From Verrucomicrobiota bacterium (GTDB lineage Bacteria > Verrucomicrobiota > Verrucomicrobiia > Verrucomicrobiales > DEV007): a DNA stretch of 24,000 nucleotides. Positions within the stretch are counted from its first letter, which is position 1; every line of letters begins with the position of its first letter. The DNA lies in contig JBCCIR010000044.1 of NCBI GenBank assembly GCA_039028175.1, positions 9,413-33,412 of the forward strand, written 5' to 3'. Position numbers and translations under genes: made by a program. Under the pieces are notes generated by a model, which was not told where the DNA came from, did not search any database, and was given only the letters and a program-made list of their open reading frames with translations. Below, one piece after another: positions 3,213 to 9,778 of this stretch.

Positions 3213-3875
3213 TTAGTGCTGGTGCCAAATTCTCCGGCGATGGAGAAGGGCGGCGAGGCCTGCGAGTCCGACCAGCATTGTGCGAGAGGGTTCGGGAATA
3301 ATTGATCCGGTAATGAGGAGGTCGGCTGAGCCGACGAAGTTTCCATCGGGTTCGATGTCGAAGGTGCCTGTCGTTCCATCGGCTTGGAAGCCGTAGAGGC
3401 GGAATTGGGCGGAACTCACACTGGGAGGGCCGAAGAGATTGATGAGTTGGGTTTCGCCCGAGGCTGAGACTGAGTCATCGGTGAAGATGGTGGCGAAGGG
3501 GCCGCCGTTGAAACTAGCTTGGATGGCGATCTCGGAAGGGCCGGTGGGAGACCGGTCGTAACGGATACTCAGTCGGTCGAGATCGTAGGGGGTGGTCGAT
3601 GTGAATCCCCAGGAGAGGAAGTCCTGGTTTATTATGGCGTCGGCGAGGGTGCCGTCGACCGTCCAATTATTTGAATTGAACGAGCTGCCGCTTGCCGAGT
3701 TCAGTCCGGGGCCGCGCGCCAGGTTGTCGCCCGTGACACCTGTGCCTTGGATGGACGGGGGCAGTGAGGTTCCGGCGGCAGAATCATAAGCGAGGATGTT
3801 GGCGGCCTGCGTGTCCGTGGCGAAGGCGGCCATCAGGAGTGATCCGGAGACGATAGCGGTGAGAAGAGAGCGCAT
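3213..3875 (-). CDS. PEP-CTERM sorting-domain secreted protein
   Basis: 220-aa ORF. The signal peptide is MRSLLTAIVSGSLLMAAFATDTQA. The C-terminus IPEPSRTMLVGLAGLAALLHRRR is the PEP motif, a TM helix and a basic cluster, as in the PEP-CTERM/exosortase sorting signal. The body is Ser/Gly/Thr-rich. Confidence 0.85.
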   Translation of the reverse strand: MRSLLTAIVSGSLLMAAFATDTQAANILAYDSAAGTSLPPSIQGTGVTGDNLARGPGLNSASGSSFNSNNWTVDGTLADAIINQDFLSWGFTSTTPYDLDRLSIRYDRSPTGPSEIAIQASFNGGPFATIFTDDSVSASGETQLINLFGPPSVSSAQFRLYGFQADGTTGTFDIEPDGNFVGSADLLITGSIIPEPSRTMLVGLAGLAALLHRRRIWHQH

Positions 3876-4142: not shown

Positions 4143-4391
4143 CTATCTGTTGAGAAGGGAGGCGATAATCTCACCCGTTGCGGCGATTAGGACCGGGGGT
4201 AGCAGGGCCAAGTAGCCGAACTCTACAGGAGTCACCACTTTTCTGACGAGTGCCGCGACGGAGACGAGTGCGAAGAAAAGGAGAATAGGAGCCACCAAGT
4301 TAAACGAAACGGGCGACCCTGTTATGCTCTGGATGGCCAACACTATGCCGTAGCCCCAAAACGGCGTACACCATGTGATTTTTTTGATCAT
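4143..4391 (-). CDS. Small (82 aa) three-helix membrane protein, hypothetical
   Basis: MIKKITWCTPFWGYGIVLAIQSITGSPVSFNLVAPILLFFALVSVAALVRKVVTPVEFGYLALLPPVLIAATGEIIASLLNR. The ATG start is followed by hydrophobic segments. It lies in a low-skew, lower-GC islet. I recognise no family. Confidence 0.55.
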   Translation of the reverse strand: MIKKITWCTPFWGYGIVLAIQSITGSPVSFNLVAPILLFFALVSVAALVRKVVTPVEFGYLALLPPVLIAATGEIIASLLNR

Positions 4392-4425
4392 AGGATCGTA
4401 AGAATACTATGCCATGAAGCAATTT

Positions 4426-4704
4426 TTACCCCGCGAATCTACGAGCTAGTGTCGCAATGACAACGACTACTATCCACGCCGCCGTCATTGGATAGAGACC
4501 CTTCACAACAAACTCTGCAATTGAGATTCTTCGTGAGATGACGAGAGCCATTGCGGGAACGGCAGTGAGGGGGAAGCAGGCAGTCACGACAGAGCCGAAG
4601 GCGGATTCCCCACAGACAGCCCAGACGATTCCTACGATGAAGGGGGCGGCCCACATGGGCCATGTCCAGTTGCGTTCCCAGAAAGTTTGGGTTCCTTGCG
4701 ACAT
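4426..4704 (-). CDS. Small (92 aa) three-helix membrane protein, hypothetical. Possible diverged paralogue of the 82-aa protein.
   Basis: MSQGTQTFWERNWTWPMWAAPFIVGIVWAVCGES...ALVISRRISIAEFVVKGLYPMTAAWIVVVVIATLARRFAG. It shares W-x2-P-x-W, G/F, ALV and EF landmarks with the 82-aa protein at a constant 6-7 residue offset. Confidence 0.55.
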   Translation of the reverse strand: MSQGTQTFWERNWTWPMWAAPFIVGIVWAVCGESAFGSVVTACFPLTAVPAMALVISRRISIAEFVVKGLYPMTAAWIVVVVIATLARRFAG

Positions 4705-4749
4705 TCTCGGGTCATTTGAGGGTGTTTTGCGCTGCTGTCGTTTTCGAAT

Positions 4750-5103
4750 CTAACCCAGCTTTGTTTTCTCATCATTCGGATGATGGATGGAATCTTGATT
4801 TAGAATTTCCCGAAGTCCGAGATAGGCAAGCAGTGTCCCTATTGGAAATTGGAAGGCGGCCACGACGAGTAGGGCTATTCCTAAGGCTTTCCCGGGTTTT
4901 GAATTCAAATTTAGGGAAGCCAAAATTTGAACTGCTCCCAAACCGCCAATGAGGAAAAAAAACCAGATTAGCTGAGAAGGGAGGTATTTGAAACTCGAGG
5001 CTAGACCCAACGCCAAAGCCGCGCCTCCTCCGATGATTTGCAAAATGCCCAGAGCCATCAGGACGCCTTTGGCAGTCGGATACGGGTCAGGATTCTGTTG
5101 CAC
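4750..5103 (-). CDS. Small membrane protein (117 aa from GTG 5103, or about 102 aa from ATG 5058), hypothetical
   Basis: The hydrophobic Gly/Ala/Leu-rich helices are LMALGILQIIGGGAALALGLASSF, LIWFFFLIGGLGAVQILASL and ALGIALLVVAAFQFPIGTLLAYLGL. The GTG at 5103 is only 8 nt from the stop of the upstream REC-AlbA_2 gene. The start codon is uncertain. Confidence 0.5.
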   Translation of the reverse strand: MQQNPDPYPTAKGVLMALGILQIIGGGAALALGLASSFKYLPSQLIWFFFLIGGLGAVQILASLNLNSKPGKALGIALLVVAAFQFPIGTLLAYLGLREILNQDSIHHPNDEKTKLG

Positions 5104-5111
5104 GAGATGGG

Positions 5112-6032
5112 CTACTTAGGGATGCGTTGATTGATGTAGGCGAGGACTTCTGAGGGGGTGAGTTGTTGGGTGCCGTTGCCGGCTCGGATGTAGAAGATTT
5201 CGTCGTTTTCGCGACGGAAGAACACGGGTTCTTTGGAGGGGCGGCATTGGATGGCGAGGATGCGTTTGCCGTCGAGATCGAGGACGTCCGAGCGGATGAA
5301 GGGGGCGAATTCGACGCCGACATGTTTTTTGAAGAGCGCGTTCCAGTGGAGGAGGAGTTTGTCTTCGTTGGCGAACTGGTCTTTATCGAGGCCGAGGGCG
5401 ACGCCTTCGTCATCGACGCCGACGAGTAGTGTTCCACCGCGGCTATTGAGGTATGCGGCGACGGTTTTGAGGCAGCTGTTCTCCATGCGTTTGTCGGATT
5501 TGTCGGTATGGAGATTCCAGCGGAGGGTGGATTTGAATTCGACGCGATCGGTTTCGCCGCCGGCGACGAGGGATTGAATGTCGGATTCCGAGAGGTCGGG
5601 GAGGTCTTCAGTGGTTTGGTCTTTGAGCTGGGCGTTCTCGTCCTTGAGGGTCATGAGGCGGTGGTAGCTGTCGAGGTGGGTGCGGACGCGGGCGACGACT
5701 TCTTCGAACTGGAAGGGTTTCTCGATGTAATCGGCGGCGCCGAGGTTGAGGCCTTTGATCTTGTCTTCGGTGTGGCCGCGGGCGGAGAGGAACACGATCA
5801 CGGCGTCGGCGGTTTGGTCGTCGGCTTTGAGGCGGCGACAGGTTTCGTATCCGTCGATGCCGGGCATGTTGATATCGAGGAGGATGAGTTGGGGCCGGGT
5901 TTCCTTGGCGATGTCGAGGGCTTCTTCCCCGGACTGGGCGACGAGGAGTTCGTATCCTTCCGCGGCGAGGGCTTCGGAGAGGACCTGGAGGTTGGTGAGG
6001 GTATCGTCGACGAGGAGGACGCGGTCGGGCAT
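5112..6032 (-). CDS. Response regulator with an N-terminal receiver domain and a C-terminal AlbA_2 (Schlafen-like, 'divergent AAA/putative DNA-binding', PF04326-like) domain
   Basis: REC: VLLVDD, LILLDINMPG (Asp53), FLSARG, EKPF. After a linker of about 30 aa comes SESDIQSLVAGGETDRVEFKSTLRWNL...LKTVAAYLNSRGGTLLVGVDDEGVALGL...ILAIQCRPSKEPVFFRRENDEIFYIRAGNGTQQLTPSEVLAYI. As I recall it, this follows the AlbA_2 pattern: E..EfK at the start, N..GG.l.iGV.d.G, p.y...... fyiR.G..t..l. No HTH or other output domain is visible. Confidence 0.8.
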   Translation of the reverse strand: MPDRVLLVDDTLTNLQVLSEALAAEGYELLVAQSGEEALDIAKETRPQLILLDINMPGIDGYETCRRLKADDQTADAVIVFLSARGHTEDKIKGLNLGAADYIEKPFQFEEVVARVRTHLDSYHRLMTLKDENAQLKDQTTEDLPDLSESDIQSLVAGGETDRVEFKSTLRWNLHTDKSDKRMENSCLKTVAAYLNSRGGTLLVGVDDEGVALGLDKDQFANEDKLLLHWNALFKKHVGVEFAPFIRSDVLDLDGKRILAIQCRPSKEPVFFRRENDEIFYIRAGNGTQQLTPSEVLAYINQRIPK

Positions 6033-6043
6033 GGCGGGCAGAG

Positions 6044-9000
6044 TTAGAGGGACTCGAGTTTATCGGCGAGGGCATCGAGGCCTTTGAAATCGAAGGCGCG
6101 AACGAGGTTGCCGATCGATTCACCGGCGGGTTTGGTGGCGGGATCGGCGGCGAGTTCTTCGGCGATGGATTTGAGAGCGGTGAGGTTCTTGATTTTGAGA
6201 GCGGCGCGGAATTTTTCGAGGGCGGCGGCGGGGATGGCGGTTAGTTCGGCGCTGCCTCCGCTTTGGGATTCGTCTTCGGAAGCGGGTGTGTTTTCGATGC
6301 GGGTGGAGTCGAACGTGGCGCCGATGTGTTTTTTGAGGAGGGCGACAAGTTCTTCCATGCGGAAGGGCTTGCCGAGAAACCCATCGAAGCCGGCGGCGAT
6401 GGCTTTTTCGCGGAACTCGGGGAAGACGCTGGCGGTGACGGCGAGGACGATGTGGTGTTTGAGTTCGTCATCGGCGCGGATGGCCTTGATGGCTTCGATG
6501 CCGTTCATGCGCGGCATACGAACATCCATGAGAACGATGGCGATTTTGTCGTTATTGGCGCGGAGGGTGTCGACGGCGGTATCTCCGTCGTCAGCGAGGA
6601 GGATATCGAAGCCGGCGCCGGTGAGCATTTGGTTGAGGATATCGCGATTGGCTTCGCGATCGTCGGCGACGAGGATGGTGAATTCCTGACCGGGAGCGAG
6701 GGCGTGGTGAGCGGCTTCAGAATCACCTTCGGTTTCGTTCCAGGCGAGGTCTTTCTTGTTGGCTTCTTCGAGGGGGAGAGTGACGGTGAAGGTGCTGCCT
6801 TTGCCTTTTTCGCTGGCGACTTCGAGGGTTCCGTCGAGGACTTCGGCGAGGCGTTTGGTGATGGAGAGTCCGAGGCCGGTGCCGCCGGCGGCTTTTCCGG
6901 CTTCGACTTGTTTGAAGGGATCGAAGATTTGTTCGAGTTCGTGCGGGGTCATTCCGACGCCGCTGTCGACGACATCGAAGCGGAGGCTCCCTTTGGGTTT
7001 TTCGGCGACGCGGAGGGTGACTTCTCCATCGTCGGTGAACTTGACGGCGTTGCCGAGGAGGTTGACGAGGATTTGGCGAATCTTTGGCGCATCGGAGACG
7101 ATGCCTTGAGGGACTTCGGGGGATACATCGACGTTGAAATCGACGCCTTTATTGGTGGCGCGTTGTTGGACGACATCGCCGACGCTTTTGATGAGTTTGT
7201 GGAGGTCGCAGGGGGCGAGATCGACATCGATGCGACCGGCTTCGATTTTCGAAAGGTCGAGGACGTCGTTGATGAGGGCGAGGAGATGATCGCCGCAGTT
7301 GACGATGGCGTCGAGGCTGGTTTTCTGGCCGGTGGTGATATCGGAATCGCGTTGGAGGATTTGGGAGTAGCCGAGGATGCCATTGAGGGGGGTGCGGAGT
7401 TCGTGACTCATGTGGGAGAGGAACTCGCTTTTGGCGCGATTGGCGGCATCGGCGTTTTCGCGGGCGACCTCGAGTTCTTCGGACAGTTTTTTCGCTTCGG
7501 TGATATCGATGATGACACCGTCGAGGTGGTCGACTGAGCCGTCGTCGCGGAAGGCGGCGCGCCCGCGCTCGCCAACCCAGCGGATCTCGCCGTCAGCGCG
7601 GACGATACGGTATTGGATATCCCATGGTTCCTTTTTATTGACGGCGGCGTCGACCTCATCGACAACCTGCTGGCTATCTTCGGTGCTGATAACGCTATCG
7701 TAGGTGCGGACCGCGTTATCGATGAATTCTGTGGCGGGGTATCCGGTGATTTCGCGGACGTTCTCGCTGATAAACTGCATGGTCCAATCGTCGTCGTTCA
7801 GGCAGCGGTAGACGGTGCCGGGAAGGTTGGCGACGAGGGTGCGGAAGCGTTCCTCTTTCTTGATGATTTCCGCGCCGATTTCTTTTTGCTTGGTGATGTC
7901 TTCCTCAATGGCGACGAAGTGGGTGGTGTTTCCGTCGTCGTCGCGGATGGGGGAAAGGGCGGCGGAGACCCAGAAGATGGAGCCGTCTTTTTTGCGGTTG
8001 CAGAATTCGCCGTGCCATTCGCGACCGTCGGTGAGAGTGTTCCAGACCTCGTCGTAGAGGGCGGGTTCCTGGAGGCCGGACTTGAGGATTCGTGGGGTTT
8101 GGCCGATCGCTTCGTCGGGGGTGTATCCGGTGACTTCTGTGAAGCGCGGGTTTACGTATTCGATATCGCCGTCGGGATCCGTGATGAAGACGATGGCGGT
8201 GCCTTGTTCGATGGCTTGGTTGAGTTTTCGGAGGCTGGCTTCGGCCTCTTTGCGTTCGCTGATATCGCGAATGGCGGCGACGGCCATGGTGGTGCCGGCT
8301 TCGTGGAATGGGCTGAGGCCGATTTCGATGGGGAACTCGCTGCCGTCTTTTCGTTTTCCGTGCAGTTCGAGATCGGCACCCATGGAGCGGGTGCGGGGTG
8401 CCGCGAAATATTCGTTCAGGTGGGCCCCGTGGCCGCTGCGAAAGTCCTCGGGCATGAGGTCTTCGACCGTCATCTTGGCGATTTCTTCCCGGGAGTAGCC
8501 GAAAATTTGCGAGACTTGATCATTGGAGCGGCTGATGGCTCCCTTGGAATCGACGATGATCATGGCGTCGGGCGCGGATTCGAGGAGATCGGAGAGGGTG
8601 GTTTCGCGGGCGGTTTCGAGTTTTGCTTCGCGGTCGGCGACCTTGCGTTGCATGGTGGCGAAGGCGCCGGCGAGTTCTTGGATTTCATCGTGGGTGCGGA
8701 TGTCGTCGAGGGGGACATCTTCGGCGCCGTCGGCGATTTGGAGGACTTTGCCGCGCAGGTTGGTGATGGGGCGGGCGACGCGGCCGGAGCTGAGGTAGAT
8801 GGTGGCGATCGTGAGGATCAGGGCCATGGCGAAGGCGCTGCCGAAGATGCCTTTTCGTTCGTGGAAGTCGGCCATGAGCTCCGCGGAATCGGCGGTGATG
8901 AAGAAGGTCCAGCCGGTAGAAGGGATGGGGGCGTGGGCGATGAAGACCTGGTCGAGGCCCATGAAGTTATCGAGGAGAATGACGCCGGTGGAGCCATTGA

Positions 9001-9778
9001 GCATTTCGTAGGCTTGATCTCTGAGGTGAGGGGTGCCTTCGACGTCGAGGGCGTCATCGATAGTGGCGTGCATGGTTTCGTCTTCGTAGGGGGAGTAGAC
9101 GAATTGTCCATTGGGGGCGATGATGAAGAAGACGTGACCTTCGGCGATGGTGTCGCCGATTTCCTGTTGGAGGGTTTCGAGATCGATATCGACGGTGGTG
9201 ACGCCCCAGAAGTTGTCGTGGCGGGTGAAGGGGACGGAATAGGTGGTCATGATGATGTTTCCGGCGCCTTCATCGAAGTACGGGGCGGTCCAGATGCCCT
9301 TTCCTTCGTTCTTGGGGCGGTGCCACCATTCGGTCGTTTCGTCGCCATACCAGTCGTAGGCTTCTTCATCGATATTCATTTCTATGTAGCCTCTGCCTTT
9401 TTCTTTGTCGCGATAGACGTAGGGGCTGAAGAGGCCTTCGACGTCTCTGTAGGTGCCGGGTTCGAAGGCCATGGCGGCGCCATAGACACGGTCGTTCATG
9501 GAGACATTGGATTTGAGCAGGCCGTAGATTTGCGACTCTTGAAGATTGGGAACGCGTTGAATGAAGCGGGCGGTGGTATCGGCGACGCGGGCGGGTTTGG
9601 AGATATATTCGTCGAAGCGGGCGGCGGCGATTTTTGCCATGTGTTCCATTTGGCGTTCGCCGGTTTCGACGACCTGGTGTTTGGCGAATTTTAGGACCCA
9701 GATGAGCGCGGCGGTGTAGATGGCCACGGTGGGGAGGCCGATGAAGAGGATCATTTTGCCGCGGATGGGGAGGCGCAT
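6044..9778 (-). CDS. Hybrid sensor histidine kinase (TM, Cache-like periplasmic domain, TM, HAMP, 3x PAS, HisKA, HATPase_c, REC, then a His-less C-terminal tail)
   Basis: 1244 aa.
- TM1: ILFIGLPTVAIYTAALIWVLKF.
- Periplasmic region with Cache-type blocks: YGAAMAFEPG, GIWTAPYFDEGAGNIIMTTYSVPF, GVTTVDIDL.
- TM2: IFGSAFAMALILTIATIYLSS, followed by a HAMP domain.
- Three PAS/PAC modules: APDAMIIVD..., TAIVFITDPDGDIEYVNPRF..., LPGTVYRC...DIQYRIVRADGEIRWV.
- H-box SHELRTPLNGILGY (His792).
- N/G boxes: LVNLLGNAVKFT, DSGVGM, GGTGLGLSI.
- Receiver: ILVADD...IVLMDVRMP (Asp1085)...GKPF. Confidence 0.95.
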   Translation of the reverse strand: MRLPIRGKMILFIGLPTVAIYTAALIWVLKFAKHQVVETGERQMEHMAKIAAARFDEYISKPARVADTTARFIQRVPNLQESQIYGLLKSNVSMNDRVYGAAMAFEPGTYRDVEGLFSPYVYRDKEKGRGYIEMNIDEEAYDWYGDETTEWWHRPKNEGKGIWTAPYFDEGAGNIIMTTYSVPFTRHDNFWGVTTVDIDLETLQQEIGDTIAEGHVFFIIAPNGQFVYSPYEDETMHATIDDALDVEGTPHLRDQAYEMLNGSTGVILLDNFMGLDQVFIAHAPIPSTGWTFFITADSAELMADFHERKGIFGSAFAMALILTIATIYLSSGRVARPITNLRGKVLQIADGAEDVPLDDIRTHDEIQELAGAFATMQRKVADREAKLETARETTLSDLLESAPDAMIIVDSKGAISRSNDQVSQIFGYSREEIAKMTVEDLMPEDFRSGHGAHLNEYFAAPRTRSMGADLELHGKRKDGSEFPIEIGLSPFHEAGTTMAVAAIRDISERKEAEASLRKLNQAIEQGTAIVFITDPDGDIEYVNPRFTEVTGYTPDEAIGQTPRILKSGLQEPALYDEVWNTLTDGREWHGEFCNRKKDGSIFWVSAALSPIRDDDGNTTHFVAIEEDITKQKEIGAEIIKKEERFRTLVANLPGTVYRCLNDDDWTMQFISENVREITGYPATEFIDNAVRTYDSVISTEDSQQVVDEVDAAVNKKEPWDIQYRIVRADGEIRWVGERGRAAFRDDGSVDHLDGVIIDITEAKKLSEELEVARENADAANRAKSEFLSHMSHELRTPLNGILGYSQILQRDSDITTGQKTSLDAIVNCGDHLLALINDVLDLSKIEAGRIDVDLAPCDLHKLIKSVGDVVQQRATNKGVDFNVDVSPEVPQGIVSDAPKIRQILVNLLGNAVKFTDDGEVTLRVAEKPKGSLRFDVVDSGVGMTPHELEQIFDPFKQVEAGKAAGGTGLGLSITKRLAEVLDGTLEVASEKGKGSTFTVTLPLEEANKKDLAWNETEGDSEAAHHALAPGQEFTILVADDREANRDILNQMLTGAGFDILLADDGDTAVDTLRANNDKIAIVLMDVRMPRMNGIEAIKAIRADDELKHHIVLAVTASVFPEFREKAIAAGFDGFLGKPFRMEELVALLKKHIGATFDSTRIENTPASEDESQSGGSAELTAIPAAALEKFRAALKIKNLTALKSIAEELAADPATKPAGESIGNLVRAFDFKGLDALADKLESL

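Follow-up and report, generated by a model that had tools for sequence, protein, structure and literature searches.

We report here a predicted response regulator of a Verrucomicrobiota bacterium, encoded on the minus strand at positions 5112-6032 of a 24,000-nucleotide (nt) stretch of contig JBCCIR010000044.1; the whole of this stretch is called the window below. The protein is read as a response regulator with a Schlafen-type, metal-dependent endoribonuclease as its effector, forming one arm of a branched two-component system, and a probability of about 0.65 is given to this reading. An earlier note, made from the sequence without database searches, had described a phospho-receiver with an AlbA_2/Schlafen-like domain standing alone behind it, and this architecture is borne out both by Pfam and by the predicted fold.

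Receiver and Schlafen domains of the regulator

The open reading frame (ORF), for which the earlier note gave these coordinates but no strand, starts with an ATG at 6032 and ends with a TAG stop at 5112-5114, giving a product of 306 amino acids (aa). The name 'response regulator [Verrucomicrobiota bacterium]' is carried by an identical deposited protein (P0001). Public and metagenome data contain full-length homologues in more than 120 clusters, with 54-100% identity, lengths of about 300-325 aa and the same two Pfam domains; given these homologues, the ORF is a genuine gene and a chance reading frame is excluded. They derive from Verrucomicrobiota, Pirellulaceae, Lentisphaeria and Gammaproteobacteria (including Methyloprofundus), and across four phyla the regulator is 54-70% identical. 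The conservation counts given below refer to an alignment of 121 members of this receiver (REC)-Schlafen family. When the full-length alignment was used to scan 185,579 species genomes, the receiver peptide pattern dominated the matches, and the scan provides no taxonomic census; among the matches listed from that scan, 1 of 80 loci carried a REC-Schlafen gene (L014, a Desulfobacterales metagenome-assembled genome). Plus-strand ORFs over the regulator and kinase genes (e.g. 5508-6047 and 7613-9694) were dismissed as non-coding shadows because they lack family support, whereas the minus-strand products match Pfam strongly.

The receiver, placed by the earlier note at about residues 1-125 with Asp53 as its phosphorylation site, was confirmed by a Response_reg (PF00072) match of 100.8 bits against a cut-off of 30.2. 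The phospho-acceptor Asp53 (codon 5874-5876, minus strand) is present in 121/121 homologues, as are D9, D10 and K105. Position 83 is S in 91 sequences and T in 30 (S83 in the window protein), and position 102 is Y in 112 and F in nine. The (beta-alpha)5 topology was recovered in the AlphaFold2 (AF2) model of this part, with a predicted local distance difference test score (pLDDT) of about 90-96. By the Pfam threshold, by its Asp, acidic pocket and switch residues, and by its genetic linkage to a histidine kinase, the domain is a canonical receiver. When the regulator was searched against NCBIfam, only the receiver part was matched, by PleD, PhoB and similar families that were all far below their cut-offs (PleD being the best for residues 1-145), and no named equivalog could therefore be assigned.

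In the full-length AF2 model (pLDDT 89.7), receiver helix alpha-5 runs unbroken into the linker as one helix of residues 109-140, which is followed by a short loop of lower confidence and by a helix (149-158) ending at G159-E160. Some 20 residues thereby separate the end of the receiver-exit helix from the catalytic glutamates. Mean identity to the window protein among the 121 sequences is 67% for the receiver, 63% for the Schlafen domain and 27% for the linker, which is the least conserved part and yet retains its hydrophobic pattern (e.g. L129).

The C-terminal part matches SLFN_AlbA_2 (PF04326) significantly over residues 160-291 (77.4 bits against a cut-off of 25.3, E 1.7e-21, model positions 1-117 of 118), and the three signatures quoted in the earlier note were all located: GETDRVEFKS at residues 159-168, NSRGGTLLVGVDDEG at 196-210 and IFYIRAGNGTQQLTPSEV at 279-296. 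An AF2 model of residues 146-306, built on a 41-sequence alignment, gave a pLDDT of 96.4 and a predicted template modelling score (pTM) of 0.91. Foldseek comparison of this model with the PDB returned SAMD9 tRNase, SLFN5/11/12/13/14 or DIP2311 as all of its top 28 matches (E 6e-6 to 4e-3; probability 1.00 for 27 and 0.93 for one), with no unrelated fold among them, and the next match had an E of 0.28. The best matches were the human and rat SAMD9 tRNase/'DBD' domain (E 6e-6, TM-score 0.64-0.65). At the sequence level, a phmmer search of the domain against PDB sequences found SLFN13 (E 6e-4) and SLFN14, and aligned it to the N-lobe of these proteins as well as to their C-lobe.

The Schlafen catalytic motif Ex4(E/D)xK occurs in SLFN11 and in prokaryotic Schlafens, and an E15A/D20A double mutant of RorSlfn5 is nuclease-dead (PMC13056530). 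In the family described here, the two outer residues of the motif, E160 and K167, are present in 121/121 homologues, and the middle one, E165, is Glu in 120 and Asp in one. The GVDD segment of the regulator aligns with the C-lobe GVDD of SLFN13 and SLFN14. Its Asp208 (Asp in 120 homologues, Glu in one) we take to be the equivalent of SLFN13 D248 and SLFN11 D252. R171, N173, E184, N185, K189, N196 and D218 are also invariant in the domain. The residues of the Schlafen nuclease site are thus conserved throughout the alignment, and because Ex4(E/D)xK and the GVDD Asp are essentially invariant, the domain is predicted to be an active nuclease and not a degenerate binding module. Binding and cleavage had been left side by side in the earlier note; the invariant site now makes cleavage the better supported option.

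The domain could alternatively be a non-catalytic nucleic-acid binder, in which case phosphorylation would control a DNA- or RNA-binding protein that regulates transcription or translation. The Pfam family has long been annotated as DNA-binding, several relatives are labelled 'predicted HTH transcriptional regulator' by JGI, and response regulators are mostly DNA-binding; in addition, the best-matching structure, 7ksp, shows a SAMD9 domain in complex with DNA, and some mammalian Schlafens bind nucleic acid without cleavage, several of them lacking the catalytic residues (PMC13462974). The SAMD9 domain was, however, later solved as a tRNase (9o0d), Pfam detects no helix-turn-helix (HTH) or other DNA-reading module in the regulator, and the invariance of four catalytic-site residues in 121 sequences would be hard to explain without catalysis or metal binding. 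We consider a purely binding role improbable.

The three-gene module and its twin receivers

The regulator gene is the last of a module of three genes on one strand. The stop codon of a hybrid sensor histidine kinase gene lies 11 nt before the regulator ATG, and a gene for a receiver fused to a nucleotide cyclase is found further upstream (Table 1). The same three-gene order was observed in an 89%-identical relative (L094/L095) and in L005 (57% identity) and L006/L007 (61%). A histidine kinase gene or a kinase remnant adjoins the REC-Schlafen gene in 10/10 independent loci examined, spanning Verrucomicrobiota, Planctomycetota, Lentisphaeria and Gammaproteobacteria, and the kinase and regulator genes overlap or are 4-11 nt apart in several of them. 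The cyclase is absent from L004 (Lentisphaeria), where a dCache-HAMP kinase lies 4 nt upstream; from L001, with a kinase-REC gene upstream; from L012 (a Pirellulaceae contig), where a PAS-kinase-REC gene overlaps the regulator; and from L008-L011 (Gammaproteobacteria), where a CHASE-PAS-kinase-REC-Hpt gene is divergently transcribed, its counterpart in L002/L003 being interrupted by insertion sequence (IS) elements. L013, likewise without the cyclase, has a kinase (HATPase_c) fragment beside the regulator.

In the Methyloprofundus loci (L002 2835-7823 and L003 925-5913), a CHASE sensor gene of 438 aa is followed by IS elements with DDE transposases, and one ORF joins DruA and DDE_Tnp_1. Since related marine gammaproteobacterial loci keep an intact CHASE-PAS-kinase-REC-Hpt gene of 1653 aa, the Methyloprofundus kinase seems, from the gene arrangement, to have been disrupted by insertion. 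In the window, the C-terminal 95 or so residues of the kinase (6044-6330) form a helical-looking tail with no histidine and no Pfam match, which is not a histidine phosphotransfer (HPt) domain.

Over 119 residues, the receivers of the Schlafen regulator and of the neighbouring cyclase share 65% identity and 82% similarity; identity between the Schlafen regulator's receiver and the hybrid kinase's own is only 29%. The two output receivers are 63-71% identical in all four module-bearing genomes. Twin receivers beside one kinase point to a branched pathway, in which a single kinase would drive two outputs. Phosphorylation gating of the Schlafen domain, as proposed in the earlier note, remains a prediction, but one that is well supported by its context: the invariant receiver residues, the kinase or kinase remnant at all ten loci and the twin receiver.

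Table 1 Features of the regulator and its module in the window
Feature	Position	Strand	Basis
REC-Schlafen response regulator gene	5112..6032	minus	ORF listing and translation, Pfam, identical deposited protein
Receiver (REC) domain, residues 5-117	5682..6020	minus	Pfam E 6.3e-29; AF2 fold
Long helix, residues 109-140 (putative dimeric signalling helix)	5613..5708	minus	AF2 secondary structure
Schlafen/AlbA_2 domain, residues 149-304 (Pfam 160-291)	5121..5588	minus	Pfam, AF2/Foldseek, phmmer
Catalytic motif E160-TDRV-E165-F-K167 (Ex4ExK)	5532..5555	minus	PMC13056530 motif; 121-sequence alignment
Asp208 of GVDD motif, predicted third metal-binding acidic residue	5409..5411	minus	SLFN13/14 alignment
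Hybrid sensor histidine kinase, 1244 aa	6044..9778	minus	dCache/PDC, HAMP, 3x PAS, HisKA, HATPase_c, REC (Pfam)
REC + class III nucleotide cyclase, 354 aa	9829..10893	minus	Response_reg E 1e-30, Guanylate_cyc E 2e-64

Sensor fusions, known systems and defence context

The Schlafen domain (residues 146-306) was searched with phmmer against 1.84 billion cluster representatives (50% identity clusters), giving 6048 matches at E<=1e-3 and 474 at E<=1e-30. The architectures of the best 150 (42-69% identity) were classified using our own REC and Schlafen hidden Markov models and a hydropathy scan. Transmembrane (TM) segments were present just upstream of the Schlafen domain in 112/150: a TM helix, an extracytoplasmic region of about 290 aa and a further TM helix precede it in 65, and one to seven TM helices end about 45 residues before it in 47. 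REC-Schlafen accounted for 15 representatives, Schlafen alone or N-terminal for 10 and other architectures for 13. The membrane family (P0160, P0164-P0167 and about 110 other representatives, some with 5-7 TM modules before Schlafen) has no Pfam annotation apart from PF04326, and some of the extracytoplasmic regions gave sub-threshold dCache_1 matches (E 1e-4 to 1e-2). One TM-sensor-Schlafen gene that was placed on a contig (L096 6531-8066) stands alone amid housekeeping genes. Whether the input is a receiver or a TM module, about 20-30 residues separate the signal-transmitting helix from the catalytic motif that follows it. The TM-Schlafen proteins appear to be one-component transmembrane sensors with a predicted nuclease output, and the clade behaves like a signalling output domain in that most close relatives are fused to transmembrane sensor modules. 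For the most part, its inputs are thus of the types that also feed kinases, cyclases and GGDEF domains.

Rarer fusions were also seen. An extra C-terminal part is present in 4/15 of the REC-Schlafen representatives, and in three of these it is a protein kinase, a second REC with an HD-GYP-type domain, or a membrane tail. P0154/P0155 are REC-Schlafen-Pkinase proteins with a Ser/Thr kinase that resembles PD-T4-6 defence kinases, and P0163/P0235 are REC-Schlafen-REC-HD_5. P0273, from the class of other architectures, is BrxL-MIT_C-Schlafen, a complete BREX BrxL with a C-terminal Schlafen domain. L013 8001-9353 is listed among the rarer fusions of the same Schlafen subtype.

The earlier note had regarded a Schlafen output as an unusual class for two-component signalling. 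The architecture has already been catalogued, without discussion, as pSlfn18 'CheY.pSlfn', with 14 members in complete genomes (Perez Taboada et al., Nat Microbiol 2026; preprint Supplementary Table 2). Members of pSlfn18 have the same order as the window protein, Response_reg then SLFN_AlbA_2, and the same Ex4(E/D)xK motif. The pSlfn18 examples available from that source are cyanobacterial, of about 350-367 aa and with a longer linker (REC 8-135, Slfn 206-359), whereas the family described here is compact (about 305-320 aa), occurs in Planctomycetota-Verrucomicrobiota-Chlamydiota (PVC) phyla and Gammaproteobacteria, and comprises at least 120 clusters; it is by these descriptions of size, linker and taxa that the two are set apart. 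Receivers and two-component systems are not mentioned in the text of the bacterial Schlafen paper (PMC13056530). Full-text literature searches returned nothing relevant on Schlafen/AlbA_2 as a response-regulator output or two-component partner, and no response regulator with an RNase output. To our knowledge, no such regulator has been characterised. The REC-Schlafen architecture is catalogued but uncharacterised. No earlier report appears to exist of how large the family described here is, of the kinase-cyclase-Schlafen operon or of a connection with transmembrane sensor fusions.

Eukaryotic Schlafens are regulated through a helicase domain, single-stranded DNA binding and Ser/Thr phosphorylation. 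The cores of SLFN11/12/13/14 and the SAMD9 tRNase share the fold of the window domain (Foldseek probability 1.00, TM-score 0.46-0.65), their GVDD aligns by sequence and the catalytic Glu-Glu-Lys motif matches, although identity is only 15-22%. Each eukaryotic chain carries two tandem lobes and the window protein one; because this single lobe aligns to both eukaryotic lobes, the window protein probably needs oligomerisation.

Closer in organisation are two characterised prokaryotic proteins, RorSlfn5, a ligand-activated tRNase in which Schlafen is combined with an immunoglobulin-like sensor (PMC13056530), and CbCash, in which it is combined with a Csx15 Rossmann-like sensor and which assembles into dimers and filaments and works with either Mn2+ or Mg2+ (PMC13462974). 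Like the window protein, both have a single-lobe Schlafen domain with the Ex4(E/D)xK site and one fused regulatory domain; they are metal-dependent and are activated by a signal on the fused domain. They respond to a phage protein or to the CRISPR second messenger cyclic tetra-adenylate (cA4), whereas in the window protein the signal is predicted to be Asp phosphorylation by a sensor kinase. Schlafen is N-terminal in RorSlfn5 and CbCash and C-terminal behind a helical linker in the window protein, and the former are found in defence loci, the latter in a signalling operon without defence genes.

The usual bacterial setting of AlbA_2, given in the earlier note as preceding an HATPase_c_4/HTH module, agrees with the published census, in which 34% are HisKinase-like and 19% HisKinase-HTH fusions (PMC13056530). 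Such AlbA_2-HATPase_c_4(-HTH) proteins (pSlfn1/pSlfn2; DIP2311, PDB 3lmm) share the fold (3lmm E 9e-6, TM-score 0.63), but their Schlafen domain is N-terminal and followed by a GHKL-like ATPase and a winged HTH; the window protein lacks both and has a receiver instead. On the response-regulator side, REC-GGDEF (PleD/WspR), REC-class III cyclase, REC-HD-GYP (RpfG) and REC-PglZ (PorX) proteins resemble the window protein in having a receiver, an extended helix and then a dimeric or oligomeric catalytic output. They are small-molecule second-messenger enzymes, whereas the output in the window protein is a predicted nuclease acting on a macromolecule. REC-Schlafen thus joins known kinds, the sensor-fused prokaryotic Schlafen nucleases and the enzymatic response regulators.

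These comparisons bear on the substrate. An active nuclease directed at DNA, or at a specific mRNA or rRNA, instead of tRNA is given a small chance. SLFN13/14 also cut rRNA and SLFN5 binds DNA, according to PDB titles, and the clade-specific invariant basic and polar residues R171, N173, K178, K189, R274 and R283 could set a different specificity. On the other hand, tRNA is the substrate of the two prokaryotic Schlafens characterised so far, as it is of the SAMD9 domain, and no SOS response accompanied RorSlfn5 activation.

The genomic surroundings bear on another possibility with the same biochemistry, which we regard as unlikely: the module could be an anti-phage abortive infection system, with infection or envelope damage as the cue for the kinase and REC-Schlafen as a suicide or growth-arrest tRNase. 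Every prokaryotic Schlafen that has been put to an experimental test takes part in phage defence (PMC13056530, PMC13462974). The 'group defense score' of pSlfn18 in the published catalogue is 0.5, although this is below the 0.71 of the main class. The Schlafen domain fused to full BrxL in P0273 is closely related (49% identity), the REC-Schlafen-Pkinase fusions have the likeness to PD-T4-6 kinases described above, and the neighbouring cyclase matches PycC as a secondary hit in PADLOC (E 1e-16), which is far weaker than its Guanylate_cyc match (E 2e-64). In Methyloprofundus L002/L003, the regulator has a DruA-family gene and a BrnT/BrnA toxin-antitoxin pair in its vicinity; no defence genes were found near the relatives in L004, L005, L008-L012 and L094.

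In the window itself, PADLOC and Pfam found no defence system among the neighbours within +/-10 kb, and the module does not lie in a defence island. The PADLOC matches in the window were to generic folds only (the HtrA protease, and the class III cyclase to PycC), and the regulator gave weak matches confined to its receiver part (SduA and PD-T4-6, E about 1e-4 to 1e-5), with none for the Schlafen part. Gene order in and around the module, which is flanked by housekeeping genes, is shared with the 89%-identical relative, the upstream flank being DUF2092, ABC1/UbiB and OprD. The conservation across four phyla also speaks against an immune function, as does the receiver being as conserved as the nuclease, unlike pSlfn5 with its variable sensor domains; a dCache/PAS kinase input is, moreover, typical of small-molecule sensing.

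A Pycsar reading of the module was likewise rejected, given the weakness of the PycC match relative to Guanylate_cyc and the presence in the Schlafen protein of a receiver and no domain that binds cyclic nucleotide monophosphates. In one relative (L006 9944-11269 / L007 5363-6658), a match to the metallo-beta-lactamase-fold Apyc1 family (Anti-Pycsar) was found 1 kb downstream of the regulator. Its presence there may be due to chance, or the protein may be a cyclic-nucleotide phosphodiesterase of the same pathway.

Directly downstream of the regulator, at 4143-5103 (minus strand), are three small predicted membrane-protein ORFs of 117, 92 and 82 aa with no Pfam match. GC content (0.51) and skew (0.13) in this region are both below those of the rest of the window, and the 89%-identical relative has a Y1 transposase together with an unknown ORF at the corresponding site. 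Membership of these ORFs in the module was rejected on account of their absence from that relative and their different composition. A 220-aa secreted protein with no Pfam match is encoded at 3213-3875 (minus strand) and ends in a PEP-CTERM-like sorting signal (…PEPSRTMLVGLAGLAALLHRRR). Outside the module, the genes of the window encode HtrA, a DUF4136 lipoprotein, a PEP-CTERM protein, small membrane proteins, DUF2092, an ABC1/UbiB kinase, an OprD porin, an AI-2E transporter, a cupredoxin protein and an HI0933-like flavoprotein. Promoter and terminator scans of the window gave results at shuffle level, and no tRNA genes were found in it.

The plus-strand GC skew averages +0.32 over window positions 1-24000 and is 0.13-0.46 in every 1-kb bin, regardless of gene orientation. 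Third-position skew on the coding strand is +0.24 to +0.75 in plus-strand genes (mostly +0.5 to +0.75) and -0.61 to -0.79 in minus-strand genes. Skew at homologous loci of other organisms is -0.04 to +0.07. The skew of the window is far above ordinary replication skew and is probably the source of the many long spurious antisense ORFs.

Proposed mechanism and significance

According to the proposed mechanism, the membrane hybrid kinase, with its periplasmic dCache, HAMP and three PAS domains, would sense an extracytoplasmic and/or cytoplasmic cue and phosphorylate the two near-identical receivers, with or without an intermediate HPt protein whose gene lies elsewhere. One regulator would then make a cyclic nucleotide, while REC-Schlafen would accept phosphate on Asp53. 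Phosphorylation would alter the alpha4-beta5-alpha5 face of the receiver, and the change would travel along the alpha-5/109-140 helix. This helix would probably pair two subunits and so position two single-lobe Schlafen domains, whose lobes would form an RNA-binding cleft like that of the tandem N- and C-lobes of eukaryotes. E160, E165 and D208, with K167, would use Mn2+ or Mg2+ to cleave RNA, with tRNA as the likeliest substrate, so that translation would be lowered and growth slowed. We infer activation as the direction of control, as well as the RNA substrate and the physiological outcome.

Several points weigh against this scheme. Phosphorylation could inhibit rather than activate the nuclease, and the immune function of every prokaryotic Schlafen tested, the DNA complex of the top structural match and the mammalian Schlafens that bind without cleaving, all noted above, count on the same side. 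The full-length model has a pTM of 0.55 and is therefore uninformative on contacts between the receiver and the Schlafen domain, and dimerisation through the 109-140 helix is something we infer. The kinase also has no HPt domain, and no HPt-like or convincing HxxKG ORF was found in the window, whereas the gammaproteobacterial kinase counterparts do carry Hpt; phosphotransfer would consequently be either direct from HisKA or via a protein encoded elsewhere.

A broader and more tentative proposal, to which we give somewhat less than even odds, is that this Schlafen clade is a general signal-transduction output module, like GGDEF or cyclase domains, through which environmental cues gate the cleavage of tRNA or other RNA. 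The cues would be received by dCache-type TM receptors fused to Schlafen (one-component) or by a kinase acting with REC-Schlafen (two-component), and in the window the RNase arm would be co-fired with the cyclic-nucleotide arm by the single kinase. The attached dCache/PAS kinases and TM receptors, the cross-phylum conservation and the location outside defence islands suggest that some bacterial Schlafens regulate physiology. In the published survey of bacterial Schlafens, 30% of pSlfn genes had no defence association and were left unexplained.

If this broader proposal is true, an RNase would for the first time be recognised as an output class of two-component signalling, and bacterial Schlafens would have a physiological role outside immunity. 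The known outputs of two-component systems are DNA binding, second-messenger enzymes, protein modification and RNA-binding antitermination. To these an endoribonuclease output would add the phosphorylation-gated destruction of tRNA or other RNA. The twin-receiver design, with its cyclase arm and RNase arm, would be a clean natural example of a branched pathway, and the receiver would offer a switchable handle (BeF3-, D53E, D53A) for studying how Schlafen nucleases are turned on.

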